IMG/VR virus record: IMGVR_UViG_3300046170_000470 | Length of the DNA stretch: 64,000 nt | Source of the DNA: a virus | Strand: one strand, 5' to 3' | In this document: in pieces, positions 6,246 through 28,593 of the stretch | How positions within the stretch are numbered: position 1 is the stretch's first letter | Layout: each line of letters begins with the position of its first letter | Notes under the pieces: generated by a model | What the model saw: only the letters and a program-made list of their open reading frames with translations | What the model was told of the DNA's origin: nothing | Databases searched by the model: none | Position numbers and translations under genes: made by a program

Positions 6246-6791
6246 ATGATCAAATTAGTAGATCTATTAAATGAAATAGATATCCCTAAGAACAAATGGG
6301 TTACTATCCCTGCTTCTGAGTTAAAGGATTATAGTGAAGAAATTTATAAATTAATTGATAACGCTTATGCTCAAATAGGTGGTCATCCTAATTATAAATC
6401 CGCGGATAATGTAACCGGTAGGGAAGCTGAAGCAGAATATGAAATAATTGATTTAGATGATGATCCCGAAATTGATGCAGTATCAGCTGCTAAACCAAAA
6501 GCAGCAGGTAAAAAGTTTACAGCAACGGGGCATGATGGTTCTAGTGCAGCTAAATCTAAAGTAGTAAACCATAAAGCTGATCAATTAAAATCCGGAGGAT
6601 ATTATGTTGAAGTATCAGGTAAAATAAAAGATATATTTAAAGCTAAAGGTGTAGAAGCTATTGATAATGAAGAATTAGTACGTAAAGTACTTAAAGGAAA
6701 AGAAATTGAGTGGTTAGGTAATGGAGAATATAAAAGAACAATTGGTGGTAAAGAATTTACCAAAGCATTAATGGGAAAACCAACAGTATGA
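6246..6791 (+). CDS. Putative internal head protein
   Basis: Late motif ATATGTATA at 6221; leader MIKLVDLLNE ends in L-x-E. Confidence 0.55.
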   Translation: MIKLVDLLNEIDIPKNKWVTIPASELKDYSEEIYKLIDNAYAQIGGHPNYKSADNVTGREAEAEYEIIDLDDDPEIDAVSAAKPKAAGKKFTATGHDGSSAAKSKVVNHKADQLKSGGYYVEVSGKIKDIFKAKGVEAIDNEELVRKVLKGKEIEWLGNGEYKRTIGGKEFTKALMGKPTV

Positions 6792-7585
6792 TAAGTTTAG
6801 TACAATTATTAAGAGAAGCACAAGGTGGCCCAAAAGCGATTATCCTAGCAGGAGCACCTGGAGCGGGTAAAGGATATATTTTACGTGGTTTAGACTTAGG
6901 AGGCCTAAAAGTAATGAATGTAGATGATATTTATGTTCCTTTACTAAAAAAAGCTAATGTTACATTAGATTTAAAAAATGCAACCCCCGAAGAAAGAAGT
7001 GAGCAAGCTAAACAAATGGCAGCCGCTAATAAACAATTCAAAGGTGAAATGGAACAAATAATAGCAGGTAAAGAATCGTTTATATTAGATGGTACCGCTG
7101 CATCATATAATTCCACAGCTAAGCTAAAAGCTGAGTTAGATGAAGCGGGGTATGATACATTTATGCTTTATGTTTATACAGATTTAGAACGTTCATTAAG
7201 CCAAAACCAAGACAGATACGTAAAATCAGGAGGTGAAGATAGAAGTTTAGCACCTGCAATTGTAATGCGTACTTGGAAAAGTGTAACAGATAATTTACCT
7301 AAATATGAAGAATTATTTGGTAATAATTTTGTAGCAGTAGCCAACACATTAGATGATAGAATGCAAGATATAGATAAAATTATAAAAAAATATCTTAAAC
7401 CATTTACTCCTCAAGGCACTAAACCAAAAACACCAGCTCAGCAAAAGAAATCTGATGAGCGAAAAGCTAAGGACAAAGAAGAAATTCAAGCTATGTTAGC
7501 TGACGATTTTATATATGATGTAATTGAATACACTATGTCTAAGGAAGAGGCACAAATGAGATTAAAACAATTTTTATCTAAATGA
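6788..7585 (+). CDS. Zeta-toxin/AAA_33-like P-loop kinase with putative capsid-targeting leader
   Basis: AIILAGAPGAGKG, MNVDD, FILDGTA, S-x-x-x-N-x-x-R; leader MISLVQLLRE. Confidence 0.75.
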   Translation: MISLVQLLREAQGGPKAIILAGAPGAGKGYILRGLDLGGLKVMNVDDIYVPLLKKANVTLDLKNATPEERSEQAKQMAAANKQFKGEMEQIIAGKESFILDGTAASYNSTAKLKAELDEAGYDTFMLYVYTDLERSLSQNQDRYVKSGGEDRSLAPAIVMRTWKSVTDNLPKYEELFGNNFVAVANTLDDRMQDIDKIIKKYLKPFTPQGTKPKTPAQQKKSDERKAKDKEEIQAMLADDFIYDVIEYTMSKEEAQMRLKQFLSK

Positions 7586-10119
7586 GTTTAGTAAACGAAT
7601 TAATAAAAGGGTTATTACCTGAAGAGGAAAAAAAACAAACTACAGCAGTATATGCTGGTGGTTTTAAACCACCTACTTCTGGTCATTTTGAAGTTGTACA
7701 ACAAGCACTTAAAAAAAACCCAGAAATAGACGAATTTATTATTTTTATAGGTAATAAAGAACGAAATGGTATTTCCCAATCCGAATCTTTATTAATATGG
7801 GAAATATATAATAATTATCTTCCATTTAAAGTTAAAATAGTTCCTACATCTGTACCACCAATTAAAGCCGTATATAATTTTGCTAAAGAACACCCCACTA
7901 GAGAAGTATTATGGGTTATAGGTGCTAGAGAAGGTAATGAAGAAGATTTTAAAGATATTACTTCACGTACTAAATCAATTTCAAAATATCCAAATTTGGA
8001 ACTTCGTACTATTGTAACAGCAGGTGGTGTATCAGGAACAGCTGCAAGGAATGCAGCCAAGGTATCACAAGAAAAGTTTGTAAAGTTCTTACCTGGGATG
8101 TTAAACCCAGAAGAAAGAACAGAAATATATAATATTGTAGCAGATAAAATACAAGAAGTGTTAACTAAAAATAATAAAACAGAAGACTATACTAAAAAAC
8201 AAAATATAAACGAAAATCTTCCAAAAGTTATTATATATAAAAATAATTTAGATATAACTTCAGAATATGATAGTTTAGTTGAGAATATACCCCCAACCCA
8301 ACTTCCTATAAGTAGTATATGTCTATTAGATTCCTATTTTTCTAAAAAAGAATATTTAAATGAAATCAGCAACAATAAGATTAAATCTTTAAAAATATCG
8401 GTATCAAACAAAAAACATATTCCCCCAATAGTAGTTAGGGAATATAAAAACAAATATCAAGTATTAGATGGAAACCATAGGTATATAAGTTATAAAGAAT
8501 TAAATAAAGAACATATTAATGCTATTGTACTACCTACAAATCAAGTAGCTGAAATAACTTCCCCCCAAGATTTAGATTTAATATTTGAAAAAATGTTTAA
8601 TAAATACCCGGATTTTAGGAAGTTTAATTATAACCCTTACATTGCTTCACTTACTAAACATATGTTGGATAATGGTATGAAATTAGAACCATTACCTCAA
8701 ATTCAGATGATCCATGACGATTATGAAAATGGAGAAGATTTATTTGGTAAAACAGCTTATTACAACCCAGGAAATAATTCAGTAGTACTTTTTACTTATG
8801 GTAGGCATCCTAAAGATATTTTACGATCTTATGCCCACGAATTAGTTCATGTTCATCAAAATATGGAAGATAGATTAACAGGTTTAGGTGCAAATACTGA
8901 TGTTAATCAAGATGACCATTTAGAACAAATCGAAAGAGAGGCGTACGAGACAGGAAATATAATGTTTAGAAGCTGGACTGATTCTATCACAGGAAATAAA
9001 TTAACCGAAGAATTATCAATTAATCCCAACCTTCCACCTATAGAAATGTTACAAAGTAAATTAAAAAGACTGAAAGGAAACTTTTTTGGATCTACTTTAA
9101 ATGAAGGCAAGAAAAAAGACCCATTTGGTTTAAATGAATCTTCCCAACCTACTTTTACAATGTATAGTGGTATAACAGGAGATGCATGGGAAAAAATTTG
9201 GAAAGATAAAAATTTTAAAGATAAAGTTACTAATATTACTAGTGATGAGGATTTTGCATTAGATTATTCATATAATTTTAAAACAGGAAAATATGAAGAT
9301 AAATATGTAAAAATTTCTAATATCCCTTTAGATGCATTTGTATCAGTTAGAGACAGAGATTATGAGGATGATGATGATTTTGAATCTATAGCAAATTTAG
9401 GTGATGAGGAAAAGATAAATGCAATAAAATATAATGATTTATTTTTAGTAAACTTATTTCCTTACAAATCTCAAATTAAAACTACATTAATTGATGATAG
9501 CTTAAATGAAAAGAAAAAACCATATAAACATAAATCTGGATTTAATCCCAAATTAGGTAAAGATCCATTTGGTTTAAATGCTTATGCTAGAGAATTAGCT
9601 ATGGGTTTAGAAGAACAAGAAAATCAATTTAAAGTTTATTTAGATATGGATGGTGTTATTGCTGATTTTGATCAACGTTTTAGAGATTTATCTGGAATGG
9701 AACCACGTGATTTTGAAAATAAATATGGTAAAAAAGCATTTTGGAATTTAATTGATGAAGAAAATAAAATTAAATTTTGGGTAGGAATACCTGAAATGCC
9801 TGGAGCTAAAGCTTTAGTTGATTATGTTAAAAAATATAATTTTGAATTGTTAACTTCCCCATCTGCTAAAAAACAATCATATTTAGGAAAAATATTATGG
9901 GTAAGAAATCATATAGGTTCCGTGTTTCCCTCAAAACCCCGTATTAACTTTAAGAAGGCAAAGGAGAAACACCTTGTTAAACCACAATTAACTAAAACCG
10001 ATATTCTAATAGATGATCGAGAAGACACAATTGAAAGATGGAATGCAGCAGGTGGTACAGGAATAGTATACAAAAATATAAGCCAAGTACTAAACGACTT
10101 GGGTAAATTAGGTTTATGA
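7582..10119 (+). CDS. Multidomain polyprotein: HxGH nucleotidyltransferase + ParB/Srx-like + HExxH metallopeptidase + possible ART-like + HAD 5'(3')-nucleotidase
   Basis: GGFKPPTSGH...SGTAAR; PPIVV...VLDGNHR; AHELVH...EREAY; MYSG...ITSDEDFALDY; YLDMDGVIADF...LIDD. Confidence 0.75.
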   Translation: MSLVNELIKGLLPEEEKKQTTAVYAGGFKPPTSGHFEVVQQALKKNPEIDEFIIFIGNKERNGISQSESLLIWEIYNNYLPFKVKIVPTSVPPIKAVYNFAKEHPTREVLWVIGAREGNEEDFKDITSRTKSISKYPNLELRTIVTAGGVSGTAARNAAKVSQEKFVKFLPGMLNPEERTEIYNIVADKIQEVLTKNNKTEDYTKKQNINENLPKVIIYKNNLDITSEYDSLVENIPPTQLPISSICLLDSYFSKKEYLNEISNNKIKSLKISVSNKKHIPPIVVREYKNKYQVLDGNHRYISYKELNKEHINAIVLPTNQVAEITSPQDLDLIFEKMFNKYPDFRKFNYNPYIASLTKHMLDNGMKLEPLPQIQMIHDDYENGEDLFGKTAYYNPGNNSVVLFTYGRHPKDILRSYAHELVHVHQNMEDRLTGLGANTDVNQDDHLEQIEREAYETGNIMFRSWTDSITGNKLTEELSINPNLPPIEMLQSKLKRLKGNFFGSTLNEGKKKDPFGLNESSQPTFTMYSGITGDAWEKIWKDKNFKDKVTNITSDEDFALDYSYNFKTGKYEDKYVKISNIPLDAFVSVRDRDYEDDDDFESIANLGDEEKINAIKYNDLFLVNLFPYKSQIKTTLIDDSLNEKKKPYKHKSGFNPKLGKDPFGLNAYARELAMGLEEQENQFKVYLDMDGVIADFDQRFRDLSGMEPRDFENKYGKKAFWNLIDEENKIKFWVGIPEMPGAKALVDYVKKYNFELLTSPSAKKQSYLGKILWVRNHIGSVFPSKPRINFKKAKEKHLVKPQLTKTDILIDDREDTIERWNAAGGTGIVYKNISQVLNDLGKLGL
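9115..9580 (+). repeat. 22-bp direct repeat pair (9115-9136, 9559-9580) encoding KDPFGLN
   Basis: aaagacccatttggtttaaatg vs aaagatccatttggtttaaatg, one mismatch. Confidence 0.9.
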
Positions 10120-10688
10120 AAGACAACGTTCTAAAAAAAGATTTTCAAGAAAGAGACGTACAAAGACTACGTAATTTAATTCAAGGTAAACAAGGAGAAA
10201 AAACACGTTCTAGTGTTGGTTTCTCTAAAGCAGATGAATTTTATGCTGAAGGTGATATCTGGGAATCAAATGGTCGTACTTGGACTATTAAAGATGGTAT
10301 CAAACAGAATATTACTAAATTAGATAAAGCTAAAAAGGCACACGTTATGCCTTTATTTTGCCCCAAGTGTAAAAAGGTAATGAAAAATCGTAATGATAAG
10401 CCTTTTTATAATTTACATAAGATGTGTTTTAATTGTGTTGTAGATTTTGAGCATGAATTAAAAAAGGAAGATAAATGGGAGGAATACCAACGTAGTATCA
10501 AAAACAACGAGATAGATAATCAAATAGCTGAGTTTAAACTTTGGATTAAAGAAAAACTTGAAGAAAGTAATGATGGTTTTATTTCAGAAGATGGTGATAT
10601 GGAAAAATGGGTAGGGAAAATAGATAAAGATAAAGTAGAACAATATGTTAAAGAAGTTGAAGAATATTTAACTTCACTTAAGCAATAA
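10116..10688 (+). CDS. Hypothetical protein with Zn ribbon
   Basis: CPKC...CFNC. Confidence 0.7.
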   Translation: MKDNVLKKDFQERDVQRLRNLIQGKQGEKTRSSVGFSKADEFYAEGDIWESNGRTWTIKDGIKQNITKLDKAKKAHVMPLFCPKCKKVMKNRNDKPFYNLHKMCFNCVVDFEHELKKEDKWEEYQRSIKNNEIDNQIAEFKLWIKEKLEESNDGFISEDGDMEKWVGKIDKDKVEQYVKEVEEYLTSLKQ

Positions 10689-10725
10689 CCTTACATATTT
10701 ATAACAATATAATAATATTATAATT

Positions 10726-11688
10726 ATGAAAGATAATTTTGACGTACACAGTTGGAATCAAAAACGTTATTTGGGTAAATTAAATGAAAATAAATCCCAT
10801 CTAGAATTTTTATCTAAGTATTTGGGTTCTATGTACCCAAATTTAAGATTTGATATTAGTGACCATACAGAAAGAATTGATGTAAGAGGATCCCAACAAG
10901 ATATGATGGATTGGGGTGACGAAAATCATGGAAAGAAATTTGGAGAATTTGAAGTATTCCATGTAGATGATGATGACAGAGGAGAAATTGTCCGTATCGT
11001 AAAATCAGATAGTATATTAAGAGAAAATGTAGAAGAAGGTATAGTTAAAGATATGCATACATTTTTAAATGATTTAAGAGATTCAGGAGTGACTAATATG
11101 TTTGGTGCTGCTCCTTATCTACAAAAAGAATTTGGTATAGATCAAAAATCGGCAAGAGAAGTATTAGCTAATTGGATGCAATCATTTAGTGAAAATTTGC
11201 AATATAAAGATAGGAAACTAAGCCACGAAGAAGAAGATAGATTAGACTTAATTGCACATCGTGAATTCGATGGTGTAAGCTTTAGTAAATTATCTGATGA
11301 GGATAAAGCAAAAGTATTTGCACAAAGAGATAAAGTAGGTGTTAAAGAATCTATAACAAAAAAAGAAGATGATGAATTTGCAGGATCAGACCCTAAAGCA
11401 GGTTCAACTATTCAAGGTACTGGGTTTAATTGGAAGCCAAAAGATTCAATTAAAGAAACAATTAAATTTATCAAAGAAAATAATCCTGAATTTACAACAG
11501 AAGAAATAGCTACTGAACTTAAAGAAATTAAAGAATTAGGTAGTCAATTAAACGAAAAACTTTGTAAAAAAGGCGAAGCATATCGTAAACGTAGAATGGC
11601 TGCAGGTGAAAAATCATCAGCTTATTTATCTGGTCGTGCTGTTAAAGTATGTAAAGGTCAAATGAGTGGTAAAAAAAAGAAAAAATAA
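10726..11688 (+). CDS. Putative modular internal head protein
   Basis: Late motif at 10695; segments delimited by LNE, LRE/VEE, VKE, IKE, LNE; basic Cys-containing C-terminal module. Confidence 0.6.
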   Translation: MKDNFDVHSWNQKRYLGKLNENKSHLEFLSKYLGSMYPNLRFDISDHTERIDVRGSQQDMMDWGDENHGKKFGEFEVFHVDDDDRGEIVRIVKSDSILRENVEEGIVKDMHTFLNDLRDSGVTNMFGAAPYLQKEFGIDQKSAREVLANWMQSFSENLQYKDRKLSHEEEDRLDLIAHREFDGVSFSKLSDEDKAKVFAQRDKVGVKESITKKEDDEFAGSDPKAGSTIQGTGFNWKPKDSIKETIKFIKENNPEFTTEEIATELKEIKELGSQLNEKLCKKGEAYRKRRMAAGEKSSAYLSGRAVKVCKGQMSGKKKKK

Positions 11689-12287
11689 TGGATACATTTG
11701 ATTTAAAAAAATATTTAGCCGAAGGTAGATTATATGAAGATGAAACAGCGGATTTAGATAAAGCTATGGCTAAGGGTTTATCTGCTCTAGAAATGGGAGA
11801 TTCATCTTTAGAAGATGAAGATTTATCTCAAGTAGTAAAAGAGGATAAGGAACAATTAAATGAATCTATTACTGGATTAGTAGTAGGTGGGATTTTAGCT
11901 GCTCCTAAACTTATACAATGGTTAGGAAAAAGTATTGGTGCTATAGGCAAATTACTTGGTAAAGATGAAAGTTCAATTGCTAAAGGAATTACAAAATTTG
12001 GTCCTAAATGGGAAAAACTTTATGTTAAAGCTATTGCTGCGGTTATAAAAGCAACAGGGTTTGCTAAATCCTTATGGATGAAAGATGGGAAACAAAATGA
12101 TAAAGATTTATATGCTGTTTCTAAAGTAGTATTTGGTGTAATATTAGCAGTAGCAGCAGGGAATGCTATATCTGCTGCTGTAAGTACTTCCTCTCCTATT
12201 ATAGCGGCATTAGAAAGTATATTTGGTGGAACTAAAGTAGCTGAAATAATTGGTATTGTACCTAAAGTAGCTAAAGCTGTAGCATAA
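11688..12287 (+). CDS. Putative internal protein with hydrophobic/amphipathic helices
   Basis: Leader MDTFDLKKYLAE, acidic linker to QLNE, then Ala/Gly/Ile-rich helices. Confidence 0.6.
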   Translation: MDTFDLKKYLAEGRLYEDETADLDKAMAKGLSALEMGDSSLEDEDLSQVVKEDKEQLNESITGLVVGGILAAPKLIQWLGKSIGAIGKLLGKDESSIAKGITKFGPKWEKLYVKAIAAVIKATGFAKSLWMKDGKQNDKDLYAVSKVVFGVILAVAAGNAISAAVSTSSPIIAALESIFGGTKVAEIIGIVPKVAKAVA

Positions 12288-12562
12288 TGACACAAGAACA
12301 ACTAACAGAAAGAATACAAGAATCACTACGTGATTGGTTTAAAAAAGAAGATTGGGTTAGAATCAATACTTCAGGTAATATTTCTGGTAAGTGTGGTACA
12401 ATGAAAAAAGGTAAAGCTACAACAAGGTGCTTGCCCAGAAAGAAAGCACAATCACTTACAAAAGCAGAGCGTAAAGCTACGGTTGCTAAAAAAGTTAGAG
12501 GAGATAAAAAGGGAAAGCAATTTGTGAAAAACACAAAAAAAGCAGAATTTAAAAAAAAATAA
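12287..12562 (+). CDS. Small basic protein (DUF5872-like)
   Basis: IQE then SLRDWFKKEDWVRI...CG...RCLP; K/R-rich. Confidence 0.55.
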   Translation: MTQEQLTERIQESLRDWFKKEDWVRINTSGNISGKCGTMKKGKATTRCLPRKKAQSLTKAERKATVAKKVRGDKKGKQFVKNTKKAEFKKK

Positions 12563-13318
12563 ATGAGGTTATTATGTTTACTATTTATACTACTTTTTAC
12601 AAGTTGTGGAATTGGATTTCAATACACAACATTAAATCATACGGGTCATATTGACGGCATTTACTCATCTAATGACTATAAAATAGATACATTAAATGAA
12701 TTTCAAGTTCGGAATAAATTAAGAACTGATTTTAATTTTAGATACGATTTTGCACAATATGCTTTATCCCAACCAGCTTCATTTGATTGGAATAATCGTT
12801 TACTAGGTAATAGATATAACTGGAACAGACCGTATTGGGGTTATAGTTACTATTGGGATAGAACACAAATGTGGAATGATTGGGTATGGGGTTATCCTTA
12901 TTCTAATTGGAGGTATAACAACTGGTATAGTTGGAATAGACCTTATTTAGGATGGAATAACTATAATTGGAATAATTGGGGTTGGAGAAATCAAATGAAT
13001 AATTATGCTTGGGTATACAGAAATAGACCTAATACTGTTCGTATAAATGGTTATAGAACTTCTAATAGAACATCTACTCGTACTATTATAAATAACTCAA
13101 ATAGGAGAACAACCCCTTCAGTTAATGTTAACAATAACAGAACTATTAGAGTAAATAAACCAAGAATTAATAATTCTAGACCTACAATTAATAATAACTC
13201 TAGACCAAGGGTTAATAATAATTCAAGACCATCTTCAACAATAAGAACAACCCCACGTACTTCTACTCGATCTAGCAATACTAGAACAGTAAGAAGTAAT
13301 TCTAGGAGAAAAAACTAA
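12563..13318 (+). CDS. Lipoprotein with W/Y/N-rich and R/N/S-rich low-complexity regions
   Basis: Hydrophobic signal with lipobox FTSC; WNN/WGY and NNSRP repeats. Confidence 0.75.
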   Translation: MRLLCLLFILLFTSCGIGFQYTTLNHTGHIDGIYSSNDYKIDTLNEFQVRNKLRTDFNFRYDFAQYALSQPASFDWNNRLLGNRYNWNRPYWGYSYYWDRTQMWNDWVWGYPYSNWRYNNWYSWNRPYLGWNNYNWNNWGWRNQMNNYAWVYRNRPNTVRINGYRTSNRTSTRTIINNSNRRTTPSVNVNNNRTIRVNKPRINNSRPTINNNSRPRVNNNSRPSSTIRTTPRTSTRSSNTRTVRSNSRRKN

Positions 13319-13343
13319 TATTTATAAATAAAAATATACTATA

Positions 13344-13820
13344 ATGAGCGATTTTAATTATCAAGCGTATTTAAAAAATAATCCCTTACTTCAAGAAGAA
13401 GTTAAAGAGGAAAAATTACTTACTGAATCTCAAGAAATTGATGAAACAGTAGAAGAAACTGTTGAGGAAGTAGCCGAAGAAACCACTGAAGAAATTCAGG
13501 AAGAAGTTCCTTCATCTAAAATTAAAGTATCTGAACTCAAAGCTAAAATTAAAGAAAATATTATTTCTTTACTTCAAGAAGAAGAAGATGAAGTAGATAT
13601 TGAAGATGAAATTGAAGCAGATGATGTTGAAGTAGATATTGAAGAACCAACAGTAGATACAACTTCCCCTGAAGTTGGCCTTTCATCTGATGAACAAGAA
13701 ATCCAAGATAGTTTAAAACTAGCCTACGATAATGCAGTTGCTATTGGAGACGAAAAACTAGCCGATCAAATCGGTAACTCAATTACATTCTTTACTAGAA
13801 CTCACGTTGTAGAAAGATAA
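13344..13820 (+). CDS. Acidic putative head/core protein
   Basis: Late motif at 13318; many [ILV]-x-E sites (LQE, LTE, IDE, VEE). Confidence 0.6.
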
Positions 13821-13821
13821 G

Positions 13822-16140: not shown

Positions 16141-16141
16141 C

Positions 16142-16576
16142 ATGACGGCATCAGAACTTAAAGAAAAAGTAAAAAGACTTGCTAAAAAAGTTTATCAAGA
16201 AAAAACTAAAGGAGATGATGCTGCTGTAGCATATGATGAATTAGTTAAATTCCCTGAACTTAAGGCAGTTATTATAGATTTACTTACAGCGGATTTTGAT
16301 AGTTTTTTAGAATCTGTTGATTGGGTATCACCTCGTCCATCTGCTTTTCGTGTAAATTTGTTGAATGGGCAAAATTTTATGCTTACATTCGATCCTAGAA
16401 GTTGGATAGCACAAGTAGAAGGTAAAAAATATTATTTACTTAACTTAGACGAAGAAGAAATGGCTGCTAAAGCTGTTTCTCGTATATTAGCTTACGGTCC
16501 TGCAAGTGGGGCAGCTGTTGAAGGTGATAATGATACTGTAGAGACAGAAGAAGAAATAGAAGTTGATGAAGAATAA
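16142..16576 (+). CDS. Hypothetical protein (putative head)
   Basis: Leader MTASELKE; acidic tail. Confidence 0.6.
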   Translation: MTASELKEKVKRLAKKVYQEKTKGDDAAVAYDELVKFPELKAVIIDLLTADFDSFLESVDWVSPRPSAFRVNLLNGQNFMLTFDPRSWIAQVEGKKYYLLNLDEEEMAAKAVSRILAYGPASGAAVEGDNDTVETEEEIEVDEE

Positions 16577-17647: not shown

Positions 17648-17648
17648 T

Positions 17649-18449
17649 ATGTGTAACTGCGGATGTAATACTTGTGAAACAAAAGGACCTTTATTAACGG
17701 AAGGTAAAGTTAAGTCTTTATTATCTGAAGGTCTACAATATCATATAGATAAAAAAATACCATTATTTGAAACAGTATATCGTATTGGTTCAGATAAACA
17801 TTTAGCTTTAATTAAAGAAGCTAGAAAAATGTATTCACGTAATGTAATTGATTTATGTGAAGATGATGAAGCATTAATTAAAACACATTTAGGTGAATTT
17901 GCTTTATATGAAGGTGAATCTGTACCTTTAGATTTACCCATGTTAGAACAAACTTATAGTGGTTTTAGAAGAGGAGAACCAGAAGACCCAGATTCTATTC
18001 CATTTAAACCAACAGGATCAGTATCTGAATTTAGAGAAGATTTAAGAGCATTATTTGGTAAATTTAAAGGTGATTTAAAAAATCCTGAATTTATAAAAGG
18101 AGTAGCTCAAGTAATGGTTAATTGGAAATCACTTTTAAGAAGCCAATTAGACGAAGCTAAAAAGAAAAAAGAAAAAAAAGACCCACCATTAAATAAACCA
18201 AAACGTGGTGGTTCAAAAGCATATTACGTTTATGTACGTGACCCTAAAACTAAAAAAATTAAAAAAGTATCATTTGGATCAGGTGGTTTAAGAGCTAAAA
18301 TTAAAAATAAAGAAGCTCGTAATGCATTTGCTGCTAGACATAACTGTAAAAATAAAAAAGATAGAACTAAAGCAGGATATTGGTCATGTAATTTACCAAG
18401 ATACGCCCCAGCTTTAGGATTAGGTGCTAAAATGAATACTTTCTGGTAA
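17649..18449 (+). CDS. Modular protein with basic C-terminal domain
   Basis: CNCGCNTC N-terminus; LTE, LSE and LDE sites; KKVSFG...AFAARHNC...AGYWSC module. Confidence 0.6.
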   Translation: MCNCGCNTCETKGPLLTEGKVKSLLSEGLQYHIDKKIPLFETVYRIGSDKHLALIKEARKMYSRNVIDLCEDDEALIKTHLGEFALYEGESVPLDLPMLEQTYSGFRRGEPEDPDSIPFKPTGSVSEFREDLRALFGKFKGDLKNPEFIKGVAQVMVNWKSLLRSQLDEAKKKKEKKDPPLNKPKRGGSKAYYVYVRDPKTKKIKKVSFGSGGLRAKIKNKEARNAFAARHNCKNKKDRTKAGYWSCNLPRYAPALGLGAKMNTFW

Positions 18450-18450
18450 A

Positions 18451-18696: not shown

Positions 18697-18705
18697 AAAC
18701 ATATA

Positions 18706-18790: not shown

Positions 18791-18814
18791 AACGCGTTAA
18801 AAATAGAAGTATAG

Positions 18815-20249: not shown

Positions 20250-20266
20250 AATATTTTTCGTATATT
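20238..20266 (+). promoter_or_regulatory. Early/host-RNAP-type promoter TTGG-N17-CGTATATT
   Basis: Recurrent motif. Confidence 0.75.
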
Positions 20267-20288
20267 AATAACAAATAAAAATAATATT

Positions 20289-20555: not shown

Positions 20556-20558
20556 TAT

Positions 20559-21089
20559 ATGAAAATAGGTTTATGTGGTACAATGAGTGTAGGTAAAACT
20601 ACGTTAGTTAATGCCTTAAAAGAAACAAAACAATTTAAAGACTATATGTTTAGAACAGAGCGTTCTAAATTTTTAATGGAGCAAGGTATTCCACTTAATA
20701 CTGATTCTACATTAAAAGGTCAAACTGTATTTTTAGCTGAACGTTGTGCCGAATTAATCCAAACAGATATTATTACAGATAGAACAGTAATAGATGTTAT
20801 GGCATTTACTTTAAATGCAAAATCAATACCTCATCAAGATAAAGAAGCATTTGAAGCATATGCTAGTGAATTTGTTAGAGATTATGATTTTATATTTTAT
20901 ATTTCTCCTTATGGAATAGATATTGAAGATAATGGAGTACGTGAAACAGATGAACATTATAGAGATTTAATTGATTTTACTATTACAACCCTTATTAAAA
21001 GACATGGTCATAAAGCAGGTAAAATAGAAAAAATATCCGGATCTACAGATGAACGTATTCAACAAATCTTAAATATTACAGGACTTTAA
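20559..21089 (+). CDS. AAA_28/NadR-like P-loop kinase/ATPase
   Basis: GTMSVGKTT, ITDRT, EDNGVR. Confidence 0.8.
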   Translation: MKIGLCGTMSVGKTTLVNALKETKQFKDYMFRTERSKFLMEQGIPLNTDSTLKGQTVFLAERCAELIQTDIITDRTVIDVMAFTLNAKSIPHQDKEAFEAYASEFVRDYDFIFYISPYGIDIEDNGVRETDEHYRDLIDFTITTLIKRHGHKAGKIEKISGSTDERIQQILNITGL

Positions 21090-21115
21090 CATATTTATAA
21101 TAAAATCTTATTATA

Positions 21116-21628
21116 ATGAAAAAATCTGAATTAGCATCTTTTATTAAAGAAGAAATCAAATCCACACTTAATACTGAAGGTGTATGGAAAAAGGGTCATC
21201 CCTCTTTAATTCAAAAATTTATTGATGAATTAGGTACCTTAAAAAATGATTACTATAATATTGTAGGAAGCGATGATGTATTTAATGGACTAGACCAAGC
21301 TGAAAGGGCTGCTAAGGAATTGATGTCAATGGCAGAAGCAACAATTGAAACATCACCAGAAGATTTAGCTAAAGTAAAACAAACCGCAGATAAAGACGAT
21401 GTAATTAAAGTTACAGAAGAAGATGATAAAGAACCATCAAAATCAGATCTTAAAAAAACTAAAGGTTTAGCTAAGGCAAAAGAAGAACTTGCTCAATTAA
21501 CTAAACAAATGAAATCTTTAGCCCGTGATTATAAAAAAGCTGAAGGTGAAGAAAAAGAAAAATTAGTAGCTGATCTTAAGAAAAAAACAAAACTTAAGAA
21601 AGAATTAGAAGCTATTATAGATAAATAA
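21116..21628 (+). CDS. Putative internal head protein
   Basis: Late motif at 21091; leader MKKSELASFIKEEI; basic coiled-coil C-terminus. Confidence 0.6.
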   Translation: MKKSELASFIKEEIKSTLNTEGVWKKGHPSLIQKFIDELGTLKNDYYNIVGSDDVFNGLDQAERAAKELMSMAEATIETSPEDLAKVKQTADKDDVIKVTEEDDKEPSKSDLKKTKGLAKAKEELAQLTKQMKSLARDYKKAEGEEKEKLVADLKKKTKLKKELEAIIDK

Positions 21629-21636
21629 AAAATGTT

Positions 21637-22020
21637 ATGTTAACATGGCTAAAAAGAAATTACCCATTATTTGTTATAGTAGGAGCATGTATAATAGCCT
21701 TTAACTTTTTTGGGGAAAAAGAAGATTATGTAGGGGAATATAATGCCAAAATCACTGCATTAGAACAAAAAGTTGATTCGTTACATCATGTAAATGACGA
21801 ATTATCTTTTAAAATAGATACCTTAAATGTCCAGATAGGTAAATTAGATCAACAATTAGATTTAAAAGATAACAAGATAAATAATTTAAGATATGAAATT
21901 AGCACAAAAGTTGATGCTGTTGATTCTTTTAATGACGATGAGCTTGAAAGGTTTTTCACAGAACGTTACAAACAGTACATCGATTCAATTAAAAAAACCA
22001 ATAGCGAAACTAGTAATTAA
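21637..22020 (+). CDS. N-anchored coiled-coil membrane protein (i-spanin-like)
   Basis: N-terminal TM helix followed by heptad coiled coil. Confidence 0.55.
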   Translation: MLTWLKRNYPLFVIVGACIIAFNFFGEKEDYVGEYNAKITALEQKVDSLHHVNDELSFKIDTLNVQIGKLDQQLDLKDNKINNLRYEISTKVDAVDSFNDDELERFFTERYKQYIDSIKKTNSETSN

Positions 22021-22306
22021 GGATTTAATTACTGGGGATGGAGCTAAAAATGAATTAGCTATTACTATAGATAAAATTAAACTGTTTGAACAAAAAATAG
22101 TTTTAAAAGATAGTGTTATTTTAAACTTAAATAATAAAATAAATAATTTTGATTCTATACTTTTAACAAAATCTGACCAACTATTATTATCCCAAGAATT
22201 ATCTAAAAGACTAGAACAAGATTTACAAAAACAAAAATTAAAAAATAAATTAACTATGGGAGCGGGTATACTAGGGATAGTAGCTGTTGCTATACTAGTA
22301 AAATAG
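21893..22306 (+). CDS. Overlapping secreted coiled-coil protein with C-terminal TM (spanin partner?)
   Basis: Signal-peptide-like N-terminus encoded inside the previous gene; hydrophobic C-terminal helix. Confidence 0.5.
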   Translation: MKLAQKLMLLILLMTMSLKGFSQNVTNSTSIQLKKPIAKLVIKDLITGDGAKNELAITIDKIKLFEQKIVLKDSVILNLNNKINNFDSILLTKSDQLLLSQELSKRLEQDLQKQKLKNKLTMGAGILGIVAVAILVK

Positions 22307-22307
22307 T

Positions 22308-23885
22308 ATGTCTGATTTAAAAAAGGTAATACGTCAAGAATATCTAAAATGTGCCAAAGACCCCGTACATTTTATGCGTAAATACTGTTATATACAGCAC
22401 CCACAAAGGGGGCGTATACCATTTAATTTATATCCATTCCAAGAAAAAGTACTCAAGCTATTTAGAGACAATGATTATTCTGCTGTATTAAAATCTAGAC
22501 AATTAGGTATATCTACATTAGCCGCAGGTTATTCTTTATGGTTAATGACATTTCATAAAGACCGAAATGTATTAGCATTAGCAACAACTCAAGCAACAGC
22601 AAGAAACTTAGTAACAAAAGTACAATTCATGTGGGAAAATTTACCTTCATGGCTTAAAGTAGATTCAGCTGAAAATAACAAATTATCTTTAAGATTAACT
22701 AATGGTTCAAAAATACAAGCAAAATCTTCAAATGCCGATGCCGCAAGATCGGAAGCAGTATCATTGCTAATAGTTGATGAAGCCGCCCTTTATTGATAAT
22801 ATTGCTGAGACATGGGCTTCTGCCCAACAAACACTTGCAACTGGTGGGGGTGCCATTGTACTATCAACCCCTTATGGTACTGGTAACTGGTTTCACCAAA
22901 CATGGGTTAAAGCAGAACAAGGAGAAAATGAATTTTTACCTATTAAATTACCATGGTATGTACACCCAGAAAGGGACCAATCATGGAGAGATGCACAGGA
23001 CTCATTATTAGGAGATCCTAGATTAGACAGCCCAAGAATGTGACTGTGACTTTAGTACCTCTGGTGATATTGTATTTTATAATGAGTATTTAGAATATTA
23101 CGAAAAATCTTTTATAAAAGAACCTTTAGAAAGAAGGGGTGCTGATCAAAATTTATGGGTTTGGGAATCCCCCGATTATAGCAGAAACTATATTGTAGTA
23201 GCTGATGTATCCAGAGGAGATGGAAAAGATTACTCAGCATGTCCATGTAATTGATACTGAAAGTAATGTGCAAGTTGCTGAATATAAAGGGCAAATTAAT
23301 ACAAAAGATTATGGTCATTTATTAGTAGGATTAGCTACTGAATATAATGAAGCAATGTTAGTAATAGAAAATGCCAACATTGGTTGGGCAACTATACAAG
23401 TTGCTATAGATAGACAATATCCTAACCTCTACTATTCACAACGGAGTGACTCCCCAAATGCTGATTCGTATTTTGACAAATATCAAGACCACTCTAAAAT
23501 GGTAGCTGGTTTTACAATGTCCTCTAGAACAAGACCTATGGTAATAGGTAAGTTTCAAGAATATATTAGTGATAAAGGAGTAACAATACAATCTAGAAGA
23601 TTAATAGAAGAAATGAAAGTGTTTATTTGGAAAAATGGTAGAGCAGAAGCCCAAACAGGATATAATGATGATCTAGTTATGTCATTTGGGATTGCAATGT
23701 ACATTAGAGATACAGCACTAAAATTAAGACAACGTGGTTTAGATGCAACCCGAAATGCATTAAATAACATAACAGTAAATAGAACACAATATCAAGGTGG
23801 GTATTTTTCAACAGGAGCTGATAACCCTTACCATATTGAAACCCAAAATGGTAATAAAGAAGATATTAGTTGGCTCTTTAAATAA
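22308..23885 (+). CDS. terL: Terminase large subunit (T4 gp17-like); three +1 indels (~22788, ~23027, ~23244)
   Basis: LYPFQ, KSRQLGIST, LIVDEAA-F, LSTPYG, QECDC, ADVSRGDGKDYS, IENANIG, NDDLVMS. Confidence 0.92.
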
Positions 23886-23909
23886 TATTTATAATAATAA
23901 TTATATACA

Positions 23910-25811
23910 ATGGCAGATACAGGCTTATTTAGTAGATTAAGAAGATTATTCTCAACAGACATAATCATTAGAAATGTAGGTGGAGACCAAATAAAGGTGG
24001 TAGATAGTAGTACCATCCAAACAAATGGAGAATTACAAACAAATTCACTTATTGATAGATATAATAGATTATATTCTACAAACCCCTCATCTTTATATGG
24101 AGCTCAATTTAATTTTAATTATCAATATCTAAGACCCCAATTATATTCAGAATATGATGTAATGGATCAGGATGCAATCATTGCTTCTGCTTTAGATATT
24201 ATTGCGGATGAATCTACATTAAAAAATGATATGGGTGAAGTATTATCTATCCGTTCTTCAAATGAACAAATACAAAAAATACTCTATAACCTATTTTATG
24301 ATGTTTTAAATATTGAATTTAATTTATGGGCTTGGATACGTCAAATGTCTAAATTTGGTGATTTTTTCTTAAAATTAGAAGTAGCAGAAAAATTTGGTGT
24401 TTATAATGTTATACCTTATACTGCTTATCATATCTCAAGAGAAGAAGGATTTAACCCAGATAACCCTTCGGATATAAGATTTAGATATGACCCTAACGGT
24501 CTAGTTAACCCGAGTTCAGGAATGTATTCTACTCCAAATAATAAATCCCAAACAGAAAATGGTATTTTCTTCGATAATTATGAAATGGCTCACTTTAGAT
24601 TAATTGGCGACACCAATTATCTCCCTTATGGTCGTTCATATATTGAACCTGCTAGAAAATTATTTAAACAATATACTTTAATGGAGGATGCAATGTTAAT
24701 TCATAGAATTTCCCGTGCTCCAGAAAAACGTATTTTTTATATGAATGTTGGTTCTATTCCACCTAATGAAATAGATTCATTTATGCAAAAAACCATTTCA
24801 AATATGAAACGTACTCCTCATATAGATCAAAAGACTGGAGAGTATAATTTGAAATACAACATGCAGAACATGATGGAGGATTTTTATATCCCAGTTCGTG
24901 GAAATGATACTACAACAAAAATTGATACTACAAAAGGTTTAGATTATGATGGTATCCAAGATGTTGAATATTTAAGAGATAAATTATTTGCAGCACTTAA
25001 AATCCCAAAAGCATTTTTAGGATATGATGAAAATGTGGAAGGAAAGGCTACATTAGCAGCAGAAGATATTAGATTTGCCCGTACTATTGAACGTTTACAA
25101 CGTATTATGGTATCCGAGCTTAATAAAATTGCACTAGTTCATCTATATGCCCAAGGCTATAGAGATGAAGCATTGACCAACTTCGAAATTTCAATGCAAA
25201 CCCCATCAATTATATTTGAACAGGAAAAAATTGAATTAATGAAGTCTAAAACAGAATTAGCAACTTCCTTACTAGATAATAATTTATTACCTACAGATTG
25301 GATATATGATAATATTTTCCATTTATCAGAAGATCAATATGAAGAATATAGAGACTTAAATCGAGAAGATGCTAAACGTAAGTTTAGATTAGCTCAAATT
25401 GAGGCTGAAGGTAACGACCCAGTCGAAACTGGTAAGTCATATGGTACACCACATGATTTAGCTTCATTATATGGTAAAGGCAGAATGTATTCTGACCCTG
25501 GAAATGTACCTGATGGTTATGATACAGATTCAGATTTAGGTAGACCTAAAGATTCCATTTCAAACATTGGAAAACAGAATAGCAATTTTGGAAAAGATAG
25601 ATTAGGAGTTAAACGTATGAAAGATACTGATAAAAATGATTCTTCAGATAGTAGAACAGATACTAATAAATCAGGTCTAGCTTTAGAAAATGCCCAAACA
25701 ACTTTATTAAAAAATAAAGATATGTTTAAAAAAATGAATAAAAAGCAATTAGTATTTGAACAAGATAAAGATAATACATCATTATTAGATGAAAACCAAT
25801 TAAAGAAGTAA
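23910..25811 (+). CDS. Portal protein (T4 gp20-like)
   Basis: PYGRS, LMEDAMLIHRISRAPEKRIFY, EDFYIPVR, ALKIPKAFL, EDIRFAR. Confidence 0.95.
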   Translation: MADTGLFSRLRRLFSTDIIIRNVGGDQIKVVDSSTIQTNGELQTNSLIDRYNRLYSTNPSSLYGAQFNFNYQYLRPQLYSEYDVMDQDAIIASALDIIADESTLKNDMGEVLSIRSSNEQIQKILYNLFYDVLNIEFNLWAWIRQMSKFGDFFLKLEVAEKFGVYNVIPYTAYHISREEGFNPDNPSDIRFRYDPNGLVNPSSGMYSTPNNKSQTENGIFFDNYEMAHFRLIGDTNYLPYGRSYIEPARKLFKQYTLMEDAMLIHRISRAPEKRIFYMNVGSIPPNEIDSFMQKTISNMKRTPHIDQKTGEYNLKYNMQNMMEDFYIPVRGNDTTTKIDTTKGLDYDGIQDVEYLRDKLFAALKIPKAFLGYDENVEGKATLAAEDIRFARTIERLQRIMVSELNKIALVHLYAQGYRDEALTNFEISMQTPSIIFEQEKIELMKSKTELATSLLDNNLLPTDWIYDNIFHLSEDQYEEYRDLNREDAKRKFRLAQIEAEGNDPVETGKSYGTPHDLASLYGKGRMYSDPGNVPDGYDTDSDLGRPKDSISNIGKQNSNFGKDRLGVKRMKDTDKNDSSDSRTDTNKSGLALENAQTTLLKNKDMFKKMNKKQLVFEQDKDNTSLLDENQLKK

Positions 25812-25844
25812 AAAACTTCACATATTTATAAATAAATATATTTT

Positions 25845-26716
25845 TTGATGAAAATAAAACACTCCAAGTACAAAAACACAGGTATACTGTTTGAACTATT
25901 GGTGCGTCAAATCACTGCGGATACATTAAAAGGTGGAGATTCTCCAGCTATTAATATACTTAAAGAATACTTTGTAAAAACTTCTTTAGGTCGCGAGTAT
26001 AAGTTGTATGAATCAGTACTAAAATCTAATGTTTTAAATGAAGGAAAAGCTAATATAGTAATTAGTACTATACTTGAATCTTCTAAAGGGTTTAATCGCA
26101 CTTCATTAAAGAAACAAAAATATAACTTAATTAATGAAATTAAAAAAGCATTATGATTTAGATGTTTTCTTTGGTGCTAAAATTAAAAATTATAAAGAAC
26201 TAGCAGCTTTATATACACTAATTGAAAGCCATAGTACAGACACAAACACAAATGTTGATCAAGTCATTGATAATAAAATAACTTTACTAGAATATTTAAC
26301 CTAAACATGAAGTTAATACTAAAGAAGTTAAAGAAGATGTTCTTAAAGAATTTCAAACTTATGATAAAGACTTAAGAATACTTACATACAAAGTACTTTT
26401 AGAAAAGTTTAACAATAAATATGATAACTTATCTAGTGAACAAAAACAAGTACTTAAAGAATTTATAAACTCAGTAGACTCAGCTCCTGGGTTAAGAGAC
26501 TTTTATAATAGTAAAATAGATGAATTGAAATCTACTTTAAACGAAGAAGCTAAAACTATTAAAGATAAAGCTACTCAAATTAAAATTACAGAAGTGGCTA
26601 AGTATTTAGTTGAATTAGATAAAACAGCTAAGGTTAATAATGATAACTTAGTTGATTTATTACAATATTACGAACTAGTAAAAGAAATTAAAGTAGCAAA
26701 TGGCGTTCAAGTATAA
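25845..26716 (+). CDS. Conserved head-module protein; two +1 indels (~26147, ~26301)
   Basis: MKIKHSKYKNTGILFELL...; frames rejoin to ...LLQYYELVKEI; late motif at 25822. Confidence 0.7.
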
Positions 26717-27473
26717 ACTTAAAGAAGCACCTTCTCCTAACCTAGCCCAACAAACGGGAGCTAAAATAGGTGATGTGTCCTATTCTAAAGATGGAGATAC
26801 TAAATTTGTAGTTAATTCTATAGATAAAGAAACAGGCCAAATAGGATGGAAAGTAATTGAACTACCCGCATTTGATAAATTAAATGATGATGTTGATAGT
26901 TTAGTTTCAACAGCTAAAGGAGTTTATACTAAAACTAAGGATGATGAAAAGTTTAGAGAAATATATGAAGAAGCTAGACTTTTAAGAAATAAAATTAGAA
27001 AACATCTTCGTAACGAATACCCAGACGAGTATAAGAGAATGACTATGGAAGGGGAAATTGAAGAAGCTACGGGTGTTGATGGAGATGTTATAGATTTAAA
27101 TCCTTCTAATAAAACAAAATTATCCAATTATGTTAAATTACCACACCATTTAGCTGCGGCTCTATTAGATGTAGCAGATGAAATGATGGCGGATGAAGCT
27201 GATACAATTAAAAACCAACCTCAAATAAAACAAGCTCTTGCATTATTAAAAAAAGCAGCTGAAAAAGCTATGACAGGGGAAAAAGAAGTTGAAGAAGTAT
27301 CTACATCATCCGGTGTAGCTGCATACAATACTCCATTTGCCTTTAAAAAAGCAGGTAAAGAAGGAGTAAAAAATAATGTGTATGTTAAAAAGTTTGGATA
27401 TAAATTAGTACCTAAGGACAAAAAAGGAAATTATGTTCAAAAAGGTAGTGGTTTAGAAGTAAAAAACTTTTAA
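26700..27473 (+). CDS. Putative internal/core head protein
   Basis: Leader MAFKYKLKE; IEE and VEE sites; 'STSSGVAAYNTPFAF' module. Confidence 0.6.
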   Translation: MAFKYKLKEAPSPNLAQQTGAKIGDVSYSKDGDTKFVVNSIDKETGQIGWKVIELPAFDKLNDDVDSLVSTAKGVYTKTKDDEKFREIYEEARLLRNKIRKHLRNEYPDEYKRMTMEGEIEEATGVDGDVIDLNPSNKTKLSNYVKLPHHLAAALLDVADEMMADEADTIKNQPQIKQALALLKKAAEKAMTGEKEVEEVSTSSGVAAYNTPFAFKKAGKEGVKNNVYVKKFGYKLVPKDKKGNYVQKGSGLEVKNF

Positions 27474-27474
27474 T

Positions 27475-27717
27475 ATGTATAAGTATAAATTAAATGAGCA
27501 AGAAGATAAAGTAAAAAAATTCCATGAAGAAAGAATCATGGCATTTGATGCTTTAGAAGCTCGTTTAGAAAACATAAAAAAATTATTACGTCAAGGTAAA
27601 ATTGAAACAATAAAATACTACAGAGAAAATCCAAAAAGTTATGCTGTAGATAAACCAACAGATTTAATTGGCGATTATATAAACGATATTGAAACATTAT
27701 TAAAATCAGAAGAATGA
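27475..27717 (+). CDS. Small putative head protein
   Basis: Leader MYKYKLNE resembles the previous gene's leader. Confidence 0.6.
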   Translation: MYKYKLNEQEDKVKKFHEERIMAFDALEARLENIKKLLRQGKIETIKYYRENPKSYAVDKPTDLIGDYINDIETLLKSEE

Positions 27718-28593
27718 AAAAAGCAGATCAATTATTTAAGGAATTAATCAATGAAAATTATATTGACCTTAAACCTATTAATAAAATAGAAGCTACACCT
27801 AAAACAAATTTTGAAAATAAATTTGCTGAATTTTTAGCTGAAGAAGCTAAAGTTGAAGAAAAAAAGGTAACTAAAGAAGTTGAAGAAGTAGCTGAAAGTA
27901 ATTTTGATTATAAAGATGTTAAAAATTTAGATAACCAAATTGGTCAAGAAGTATTAAATGGTATTTACTTTGAAGCAAAACAAAACCCAGATAAATCATT
28001 AGAAGAAATTAGAGAAATAGTATCTAAAAACTTAGCTAAGGATGGACAACATTATATGAATAATGCTATGTTTGGTATCGATGGTTTAAAGGCTGAAACA
28101 ATGAAATGTGAAGAAGTTTCAGGTAAACATGCTGCTAGTGGGATATTCTGATAAAGTTAAAGAAGTAGTAAAAGAATCTTTAATGGGTGGAACAACAAAC
28201 ATTGTTAAAGAAGAAGAAGAAGAAAAAGAAGCCCCAAAACCTAAAAAAGCTAAAAAAGTTAAAAAAGAATCAATTGACACTAAGCTAGCTGAAATTGGTA
28301 AAGAAGCAGAAGCTGTAAAATTAGAAGCTCAATTAGACTTTTTACATGATCATATTGCTGAAAAATTAGAAAGAGTTAATTCAATTAATGAAGATGAAAA
28401 TCTTAAAGAATTAATTGATAAAGCTAAAATGAAGCAAATGCAAAAAGAAATTAAAGAGCTAGAAAAGAAAAAAGCCAAAATGGAAAAAATCTATGAAAAA
28501 TCTTGTGGTAGAAAATACCAAAAAGAAGAAATTGTAGATGAAATGGAAGTTAACGGAGTTGAAGTAGAAGAAGTATCTTTGGACCATGAATAG
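27714..28593 (+). CDS. Putative prohead core protein; +1 indel near 28141
   Basis: ORFs 27714 and 28108 join (...AASGYSDKVKE...); charged, many x-x-E sites; immediately upstream of the protease. Confidence 0.6.

Follow-up and report, generated by a model that had tools for sequence, protein, structure and literature searches.

Interchangeable N-terminal leaders ending in prohead-protease-type sites on candidate capsid cargo of an uncultured marine far-T4 phage

The subject of this study is a set of short N-terminal leaders carried by otherwise unrelated proteins in a 64,000-nucleotide stretch of viral DNA (IMG/VR record IMGVR_UViG_3300046170_000470; hereafter the window), which is part of an uncultured marine 'far-T4' myophage. 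Comparison with related loci showed that these leaders are real mobile modules, conserved at the peptide level and ending in a prohead-protease-type [IL]-x-E site, and that the proteins carrying them avoid, as a group, the same site in the remainder of their sequence. We consider it likely that they belong to an expanded, multi-leader version of the capsid-targeting and propeptide system of phage T4. An earlier note, made from the letters of the window, had proposed that about 15 proteins encoded between positions 6246 and 28593 are addressed to the head by such leaders, matured there by a gp21-like protease and injected with the DNA. This idea gained indirect support from the modularity and swapping of the leaders, the invariant [IL]-x-E, the avoidance of that site, a T4 control and a late motif shared with structural genes. 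The leader-like N-terminus of the major capsid protein (MCP) is, however, probably not its maturation site, and the enzyme list was backed only in part.

Leaders as exchangeable modules on unrelated bodies

The comparison set consisted of 2179 open reading frames (ORFs; those of the window are named by their first position) called from the window and 160 related loci, the body of each protein being defined as residue 31 to the end. Strict clustering of the bodies (E<=1e-10, at least 60% coverage) gave 431 families; it was used instead of a first, looser clustering, which had produced a giant cluster of 806 members via low-complexity acidic segments. Hundreds of marine relatives are present in IMG/VR, and a complete 164-kb one (G001) served as whole-genome stand-in for the window's phage. 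The nearest cultured phage was Flavobacterium phage vB_FspM_immuto (immuto; portal 62% identical), followed by Microcystis phage Mel-JY01.

When N-terminal 17-mers were clustered, seven clusters each extended over at least three body families, whereas C-terminal 17-mers treated by the same procedure gave none. Leader B (MDNFDLKKYLAEG(K/R)L(L)xE, that is, M-D-N-F-D-L-K/R-K-Y-L-A-E-G-K/R-L-(L)-x-E) was carried by 54 strict body families (104 proteins), leader B2 (F-D-x-x-x-W...Y-L...L-x-E) by 19, leader A (M-I-x-L-x-x-L-L-x-E) by 14, leader C (M-K-K-S-E-L-x-x-[FYI]-I-K-E) by 12, leader E (...R-M-Q-K-L-A-G-I-I-T-E) by seven and leader F (M-K-E-L-x-R-F-R-Q-F-L-x-E-G) by five. Genes with the B leader also formed tandem arrays, with three adjacent genes in one related locus (L021, 3414-4857) and six within 2.5 kb in another (G004, L084 contig, 61967-64495); their products combined identical B leaders with unrelated small bodies, the same pattern as at the internal-protein loci of T-even phages.

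Leaders were exchanged on otherwise homologous proteins as well. Five body families occurred with differing leader types (A/B in three, B/F in one and B/E in one), and in all five the local alignment of the bodies began at or just past [LM]-x-E. Thus, the family of a Zeta-like kinase started with MISLVQLLKE/A.. or with MDNFDYKKYIAEGKLLKE/A.. (the slash marks the end of the leader), and the remaining pairs were MIKLINILSE/ADVEK-CPAPTQ and MNTFDLRRYLVEGKLYE/AAMA-CPLPTQ, MRLLELLRE/AK and MSFDFKKYITEGKLTE/DIPV, ..GKLLKE/FVGG and ..GPDLMKE/FVGG, and ..GRLLKE/NISQFEDY and ..IITEEQLNE/NIEQFEDY.

Judging by such arrays and swaps, recombination at the leaders is frequent, and many leader codons are nearly uniform (TTA, AAA, TAT, GAA); both facts would suit a reading in which the shared 5' ends act at the nucleotide level, as recombination handles in cassette exchange or as enhancers of translation initiation in a host without Shine-Dalgarno use, and encode a functionless peptide. 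We regard this as very unlikely. Among 51 distinct DNA sequences of the B leader, N3, F4 and L15 were invariant or nearly so and E12 was invariant, whereas synonymous codons, where codon bias permits them to vary, were split evenly (N3 AAT/AAC 27:21, F4 TTT/TTC 26:25, L15 TTA/CTA 22:22); since the residues are fixed while the synonymous codons vary, selection acts on the peptide. Moreover, six unrelated leader sequences converge on a terminal [IL]-x-E, the second site of the B leader retains L-x-E while occurring in two registers (of 88 distinct leaders, 37 have E17 and 30 have E18), and the avoidance footprint described below lies in the bodies, not in the leaders.

In the window itself, the N-termini quoted in the earlier note were all found (Table 1, together with MSLVNE at 7582, MDTFDLKKYLAE at 11688 and MSLQTLLE at the start of the MCP gene, 30588). 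The enrichment expected from that note was also present, [ILVM]-x-E occurring within the first 25 residues of 20 of the 29 ORFs between 6246 and 28593 and of 12 of the 46 ORFs elsewhere (Fisher p=3.4e-4, odds ratio 6.3). When only a Glu at positions 5-20 was counted and the range was widened as far as the MCP, the figures became 21/32 and 8/43 (p=4.5e-5); in G001, the motif lay near the N-terminus in 20/32 ORFs of the homologous 95-125 kb region and in 47/165 elsewhere (p=4e-4). The four leader groups that had been drawn up from the window fared unevenly: relatives backed three of them (6246, 6788 and 7582; 10726, 11688 and 13344; 26700 and 27475) and ORF 21116 of the fourth, whereas the other two members of the latter, 12287 and 16142, were weakly backed.

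Ten B-leader bodies from relatives matched no Pfam family. A tblastn search of 50,697 phage records with a 20-residue B leader returned only immuto (E=6), and the leader was absent, in the same records, from cultured phages with a published virion proteome. In immuto, whose host is Flavobacterium sp. LMO8, A-, B-, B2- or C-like leaders stand at the N-termini of the products of immuto26A_189, _191, _194, _195, _199 and _202. Two additional arrangements were seen in relatives. One ORF (L106, 5226-5894) stacks a B leader, an acidic spacer and an internal C-like leader. G001 (101359-101895) and eight families have yet another class of leader, M-[KE]-D-L-K-x-I-Q-E-F-F-S-K-P-x-x-E, whose two sites are at positions 9 and 17 and which has no member in the window.

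Protease-site avoidance and the proposed route into the head

T4 gp21 cuts after Glu in L/I-x-E (PMC9026906), and cargo that must survive such a protease in the prohead should avoid the motif in its body. This footprint was measured on one representative per strict family (70-350 amino acids (aa), residues 31 to end). The observed/expected ratio (O/E) of [LI]xE was 0.70 in 84 leader families versus 1.19 in 208 others (ratio 0.59, bootstrap 95% confidence interval 0.46-0.74; per-family Mann-Whitney p=1e-6), while the control motifs [LIVMF]xD, [LIVMF]xK, [LIVMF]E and [LIVMF]xxE gave ratios of 1.01-1.07. In a scan of the P3 residue, depletion was confined to I (0.59), F (0.73), L (0.78), P (0.79), V (0.83) and M (0.86), the other 14 residues lying at 0.99-1.39; in a scan of P1, E stood at 0.69 and D, Q, N and K at 1.02-1.12; and in a scan of spacing, a spacing of 1 gave 0.69 and spacings of 0, 2, 3 and 4 gave 0.89-0.98. 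As a sequence pattern, the avoidance matches the published specificity of gp21, as would be expected of tagged proteins that are exposed to the protease yet survive it.

By family, the footprint was strong for 6246 (0.21 for [LIVMF]xE, against 1.57 for the control motif), 6788 (0.28), 27475 (0.29, against 1.54 for the control), 21116 (0.59) and 16142 (0.63). The scaffold was opposite in sign, its sites being enriched 1.4-1.7-fold. The T4 control behaved in the same way: the bodies of IPI, IPII and IPIII contain 0 [LI]xE versus 2.7 expected and gp22 contains 14 versus 5.0 expected, with a T4 background O/E of 1.18 that is the same as here.

In the expanded T4-like system that we favour, proteins made late in infection would carry their first 8-20 residues as a short detached helical tag of one of at least six interchangeable types (A, B, B2, C, E, F), which, by analogy with the T4 capsid-targeting sequence (CTS), would dock the protein onto the scaffolding core during prohead assembly. 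The gp21-type protease (28586-29191) would then cut after the terminal [IL]-x-E, and the same enzyme would shred the site-rich scaffold and trim the MCP propeptide. The freed cargo would remain in the head and exit with the DNA at the next infection. Docking, cleavage, virion retention and ejection of the tagged proteins are what we infer for this system. On balance, but with little firmness, we also favour a broader proposal, namely that one abundant lineage of T4-like phages of marine Bacteroidota uses a combinatorial address code in which at least six unrelated, freely swappable tags, each ending in the site of the head protease, would load a fast-evolving co-injected arsenal, kinases and multi-enzyme proteins included, and in which site avoidance would permit prediction of the injected proteome from sequence only.

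The tagged proteins might instead be cleaved but never delivered, as accessory core or scaffold parts or as decoys or regulators of the protease that are then expelled or degraded. Their genes do flank the head module, and some families (17649, O/E 2.0; 26700, 1.5; 27714, 1.5; 10726, 1.3) are site-enriched, which is the pattern of the degraded T4 proteins gp22, gp67 and gp68. Most tagged families, however, avoid internal sites, which is sensible only if the body must survive the protease; their bodies are hypervariable, encoded in tandem and include enzymes such as the kinase, like the T4 IP and Alt effectors and unlike conserved assembly parts; and more than 100 body families over the lineage are hard to square with a structural role. 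The site-rich families may still be assembly parts, an option not open to the many hypervariable families that are poor in sites; for the tagged proteins as a whole we hold non-delivery to be improbable.

It also seems quite improbable, slightly more so, that the tags are docking or recognition peptides for some other partner, such as a modifying enzyme like those of ribosomally synthesised and post-translationally modified peptides (RiPPs) or of the radical S-adenosylmethionine (SAM) type, a chaperone, a membrane or secretion route or a phage compartment, with [IL]-x-E being incidental. No radical-SAM domain was found by Pfam in 30 ORFs of the region, and a CxxxCxxC pattern search over all ORFs of the window, a coarse test, had a single match, in the Cys-rich peptide at the start of ORF 17649. 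The hydrophobic Sec and lipoprotein signals at 21893 and 12563 differ from the leaders, which are charged and amphipathic. In addition, the avoidance seen throughout the bodies concerns [LI(VMF)]-x-E alone, which indicates a protease selective for Glu, as gp21 is, and the swap junctions fall exactly at [LM]-x-E.

Several points weigh against a protease-processed, head-delivered cargo. Short amphipathic L/E-rich N-terminal helices are common, and internal 25-residue windows of the same proteins carry [ILVM]-x-E in 36-40% of cases. Within the window, the pairwise similarity of leaders (Smith-Waterman, first 21 residues of 75 ORFs) equalled that of internal-segment and shuffled nulls, so that the leader families needed evidence from relatives; significance was reached only once these had been added, when 17-mers clustered over unrelated bodies. 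Null-level similarity in the window and a frequent motif are what chance or composition would yield, in the form of Glu/Leu-rich N-terminal helices in an AT-rich phage. We give this explanation hardly any credence, against which stand the positional enrichment (p=3e-4 to 5e-5), the occurrence of one 18-residue leader on 54 body families with no such sharing at C-termini, and a footprint that is specific to the motif, its five controls being null.

The footprint was weak or absent in B2 families (pooled O/E 1.0) and in the families of 10726 (1.31), 11688 (0.93) and 13344 (0.98), and T4 Alt shows no avoidance (7 [LI]xE, 7.1 expected); it is thus neither necessary nor individually diagnostic, and avoidance is a property of the group, not a test for single genes. 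Orthologues of the 845-aa enzyme encoded at 7582 differ at the N-terminus, some having a 17-20-residue extension that ends in [IL]L-x-E and others starting at the fold (MSKVIAAYGGGFKPPT, 8 copies). Finally, literature searches yielded no virion mass spectrometry or proteome for immuto, Mel-JY01 or another relative.

Relation to known packaging systems

Addressing proteins to the head by N-terminal peptides has precedents in T4 and, with long propeptides, in giant phages; several interchangeable tags, the double-site 18-residue tag, the scale and the host group differ here. In the T4 CTS, targeting depends on the aromatic residues 4 and 7 and processing on residues 8 and 10 (PMC9026906). The two systems share a 10-20-residue tag on unrelated proteins that ends in L/I-x-E, an S77 protease and the order of the head genes. 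They also share small cargo bodies that are free of sites, or here poor in them, a site-rich scaffold, and cargo genes that are hypervariable and in tandem.

The resemblance extends to individual sequences. The T4 CTS, MKTYQEFIAE, and the core of leader B, F....YLAE, both place aromatic residues before [IL]-A-E (Y4, F7 and I8-A9-E10 in T4; F4, Y9 and L10-A11-E12 here). The T4 gp24 propeptide MAKINELLRE resembles the A leader MISLVQLLRE, the T4 gp21 N-terminus MNEPQLLIE/T resembles that of the protease encoded here, MNRSLLIE/T, and MLKEQLIAEA of T4 gp22 can be matched with the scaffold N-terminus MSNNRDLLKEAIA. In contrast with the one leader of T4, at least six unrelated interchangeable types occur here, of which leader B has 17-18 residues and two tandem sites. 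T4 has 3-4 tagged genes, whereas about 12-16 per genome and more than 100 body families over the lineage were counted here; the candidate cargo, known in our case from sequence alone, counts among its members a P-loop kinase and perhaps a large multi-enzyme protein; and the host is a marine member of the Bacteroidota.

In the giant phages phiKZ, 201phi2-1 and SPN3US, inner-body and ejection proteins are processed after a short x-x-E by proteases homologous to gp21 (PMC5694885, PMC9026906). As proposed here, many head-internal proteins have Glu-cut N-terminal propeptides with inferred prohead targeting, and diverged paralogues can have identical N-termini (SPN3US gp53/gp54). Their propeptides are, however, mostly longer (several exceed 100 residues), show another P3 preference and have not been described as short, exchangeable tags of small proteins that are otherwise unrelated.

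Two further likenesses are more distant. Polyvalent proteins of phages and conjugative elements, which are held to accompany the DNA into the host, string together unrelated enzyme domains, as does the product of ORF 7582 (7582-10119), and the likeness is limited to this one candidate. In encapsulins, too, a short terminal peptide brings diverse enzymes inside an HK97-fold shell. Those cargo-loading peptides are usually found at the C-terminus, attach directly to the shell protein and undergo no proteolytic removal, and neither DNA nor delivery is involved.

Literature searches found no description of the leader expansion reported here. The T4 CTS, known from few T-even proteins, is the standard example of a virus that directs proteins into its own head for delivery along with its genome. 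If the proposed system is real, widespread ocean phages would have expanded this principle into a modular, multi-tag system with a large, fast-turning-over cargo, likely rich in uncharacterised functions of first-minute host takeover and anti-defence. The combination of tag, late motif and site avoidance would then allow injected effectors to be nominated in uncultured phages from sequence only, and the new short tags could serve to bring foreign proteins into phage capsids.

Candidate cargo, head genes and a shared upstream motif in the window

The window has 30% G+C, and its + strand carries nearly all genes (Table 1). It contains a head module of T4 type, in which terminase, portal, 3-4 small ORFs, protease, scaffold and MCP are followed by sheath, tube and baseplate genes; the order portal - x - x - x - protease - scaffold - MCP is that of T4.

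Table 1 Candidate cargo genes, head genes and motif copies in the window (aa, amino acids; a slash marks the position after a terminal Glu; letters in parentheses give the leader type)
Feature	Position	Strand	Description	N-terminus	Assignment
ORF 6246	6246-6791	+	181-aa protein	MIKLVDLLNE (A)	strong cargo candidate
ORF 6788	6788-7585	+	Zeta-toxin-like P-loop kinase	MISLVQLLRE (A)	strong cargo candidate
ORF 7582	7582-10119	+	845-aa multi-domain enzyme (Pfam cytidylyltransferase-like, ParB_N, NT5C)	MSLVNELIKGLLPE (extension)	weaker cargo candidate
ORF 10726	10726-11688	+	320-aa protein; C-terminal basic 2-Cys module after QLNE	MKDNFDVHSWNQKRYLGKLNE (B2)	
ORF 11688	11688-12287	+	199-aa protein; two tandem L-x-E sites	MDTFDLKKYLAEGRLYE (B)	
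ORF 12287	12287-12562	+	91-aa protein	MTQEQLTERIQE	weak candidate
ORF 13344	13344-13820	+	158-aa acidic protein	(B-like)	
ORF 16142	16142-16576	+	144-aa protein	MTASELKE (C-like)	moderate candidate
ORF 17649	17649-18449	+	266-aa protein, Cys-rich N-terminus	MCNCGCNTCETKGPLLTE	core-like rather than cargo-like
ORF 21116	21116-21628	+	170-aa protein	MKKSELASFIKE (C)	
Large terminase	22308-23885		split by frameshift in the window		
Portal	23910-25811		Portal_T4, E=1.9e-65		
ORF 26700	26700-27473	+	257-aa protein between portal and protease	MAFKYKLKE	candidate prohead-core protein
ORF 27475	27475-27717	+	80-aa protein	MYKYKLNE	candidate small head-internal protein
ORF 27714	27714-28593	+	frameshift-split in the window, 295-429 aa in relatives	MKKADQLFKELINE	core-like protein
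Protease	28586-29191	+	S77 (T4 gp21 family), PF03420 E=7.9e-30	MNRSLLIE/T	prohead serine protease
Scaffold	29368-30561	+	SEE[IV]xE repeats; frameshifted in the window, 379-468 aa in relatives	MSNNRDLLKEAIA	scaffold
MCP	30588-32120	+	gp23 family, propeptide ~58 aa; frameshifted in the window		major capsid protein
ATATTTATAA copies	188, 2878, 10695-10704, 13318-13327, 18625, 21091-21100, 23885 (portal), 25822, 33094, 33121, 38199 (sheath), 40517 (tube), 42498, 44913	+			candidate late promoter

Candidate cargo and structural genes share an upstream motif. The decamer ATATTTATAA occurs in 14 copies, all on the + strand, versus 2.4 expected on both strands (6-fold), a number that none of 100 shuffles reached. 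Thirteen of the 14 copies lie a few tens of nucleotides upstream of a start codon, and the genes preceded by the motif include those for the portal, sheath, tube and baseplate as well as ORFs 10726, 13344 and 21116; a variant, ATATGTATAA, stands 20 nucleotides upstream of ORF 6246. These positions make ATATTTATAA a candidate late promoter of this phage group. The decamer is near to, but distinct from, the T4 sequence TATAAATA.

The best-supported candidate cargo genes, judged from their sequences and those of their relatives, are 6246, 6788, 10726, 11688, 13344 and 21116. The leader of ORF 6246 was kept in 6/6 orthologues, and its product had no Pfam or PHROG match. In the kinase encoded by ORF 6788, the Pfam Zeta_toxin domain (E=7.5e-16) begins at residue 11, directly after the leader. 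Across 29 orthologues down to 33% identity, E10 was as invariant as the P-loop, and M1, I2, L4 and L8 were at least 90% conserved; one orthologue, in locus L087, has a type-B leader in place of A. In an AlphaFold2 (AF2) model, residues 1-10 form a low-confidence detached helix before strand beta-1 (predicted local distance difference test, pLDDT, 51 versus 89.5 overall). In a PHROG search, none of ten window candidates found a match except this kinase, whose domain weakly matched (E=4.9e-5) a domain within the 1440-aa 'minor head protein' family phrog_16619, a hint of P-loop kinase domains within the head proteins of other phages.

Besides this kinase, a strong cargo candidate, the enzymes named in the earlier note included functions now assigned to the 845-aa protein of ORF 7582, where the extension is present on part of the orthologues only and the body O/E is 0.86, and a peptidase, for which Pfam confirmed no domain among the candidate enzymes of the window. 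The body family of ORF 13344 occurs in relatives behind leaders C (16), B (12) and E (1), and the C leader is present on 35/46 orthologues of ORF 21116. Orthologues of ORF 16142 start with MT[KSA]xELRxKI, and 15/62 of them match the C pattern. Orthologues of ORF 12287 keep h-x-E-h-h-x-E-S-L-R-D-W-F at their N-termini, a conserved pattern that may be part of the fold.

The basic 2-Cys module at the end of ORF 10726 (11530-11688; ..LCKKGEAYRKRRMAAGEKSSAYLSGRAVKVCKGQMSGKKKKK) is itself mobile. About 45 residues long and highly basic, it was found in 25 strict families of the loci, where it either ends one of many different proteins or follows a short leader without a gap, and always with [LIV]-x-E in front, as if it were released by the protease; by its sequence, it may be a DNA-binding internal peptide.

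Within the head module, the leader of ORF 26700 was kept in 42 orthologues (body O/E 1.53) and ORF 27475 was conserved in 43. The apparent ORF 28108-28593 is the tail of the gene starting at 27714, from which it is separated by a frameshift, and body sites of this family are enriched (O/E about 1.3-1.5). ORFs 26700, 27475 and 27714-28593 occupy the position of T4 gp67/gp68 and probably encode core or internal head proteins, a label that suits these candidates better than cargo. The gp21-like protease predicted earlier at 28586 was recovered as a Peptidase_S77 member, and its His76 (in DHPE) and Ser130 (in VSSRG) were invariant in 16 relatives. When the protease (residues 22-201, alignment of 16 rows) was modelled in complex with the N-terminal 45 residues of ORF 11688, the prediction scored 0.01, below the mark, and was not used as evidence in either direction. 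The scaffold proved to be as rich in sites as had been noticed in the window, with 32-41 [ILVM]-x-E in relatives versus 19-26 expected, and its N-terminus clusters with the A leader of the kinase.

For the MCP, the earlier note had pointed to its N-terminal MSLQTLLE as a leader of the same kind. This candidate maturation site, at E8, was rejected in favour of a cut near residue 58. In a phmmer comparison with mature T4 gp23* (E=1.5e-29), T4 mature residue 24 aligned to MCP residue 80, and the propeptide region is homologous to that of T4 (KW.K..LLEG...II..ENQ.K), so that the cut is probably LVVE58/S. This site lies 21 residues before the conserved segment EQWAGVALPLVRK, and the T4 site LTE65/A lies 23 residues before the matching segment.

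ORF 17649 starts with a Cys-rich peptide (17649-17702) consisting of MCNCGCNTC, with four Cys in nine residues, followed by PLLTE. The peptide was kept in ~50 orthologues, some of which have an extra MDLKKLIKEVLE leader ahead of it, and the family's site enrichment given above compares with 0.84 for the control motif. Two genes with export signals, one with the lipoprotein-type signal MRLLCLLFILLFTSCG (12563-13318) and one for a Sec-type signal protein (21893-22306), stand amid the tagged genes and are conserved in relatives.

Five genes are split into two or three frames in the window and intact in relatives, namely those for the terminase (22308-23885), a conserved 288-aa product (25845-26304), the core-like protein (27714-28593), the scaffold (29368-30561) and the MCP (30588-32120). 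A near-identical contig (L002) is 99.74% identical to the window, with 5 gaps across 4.6 kb, and the frame splits are probably indel errors or population variants, not pseudogenes.

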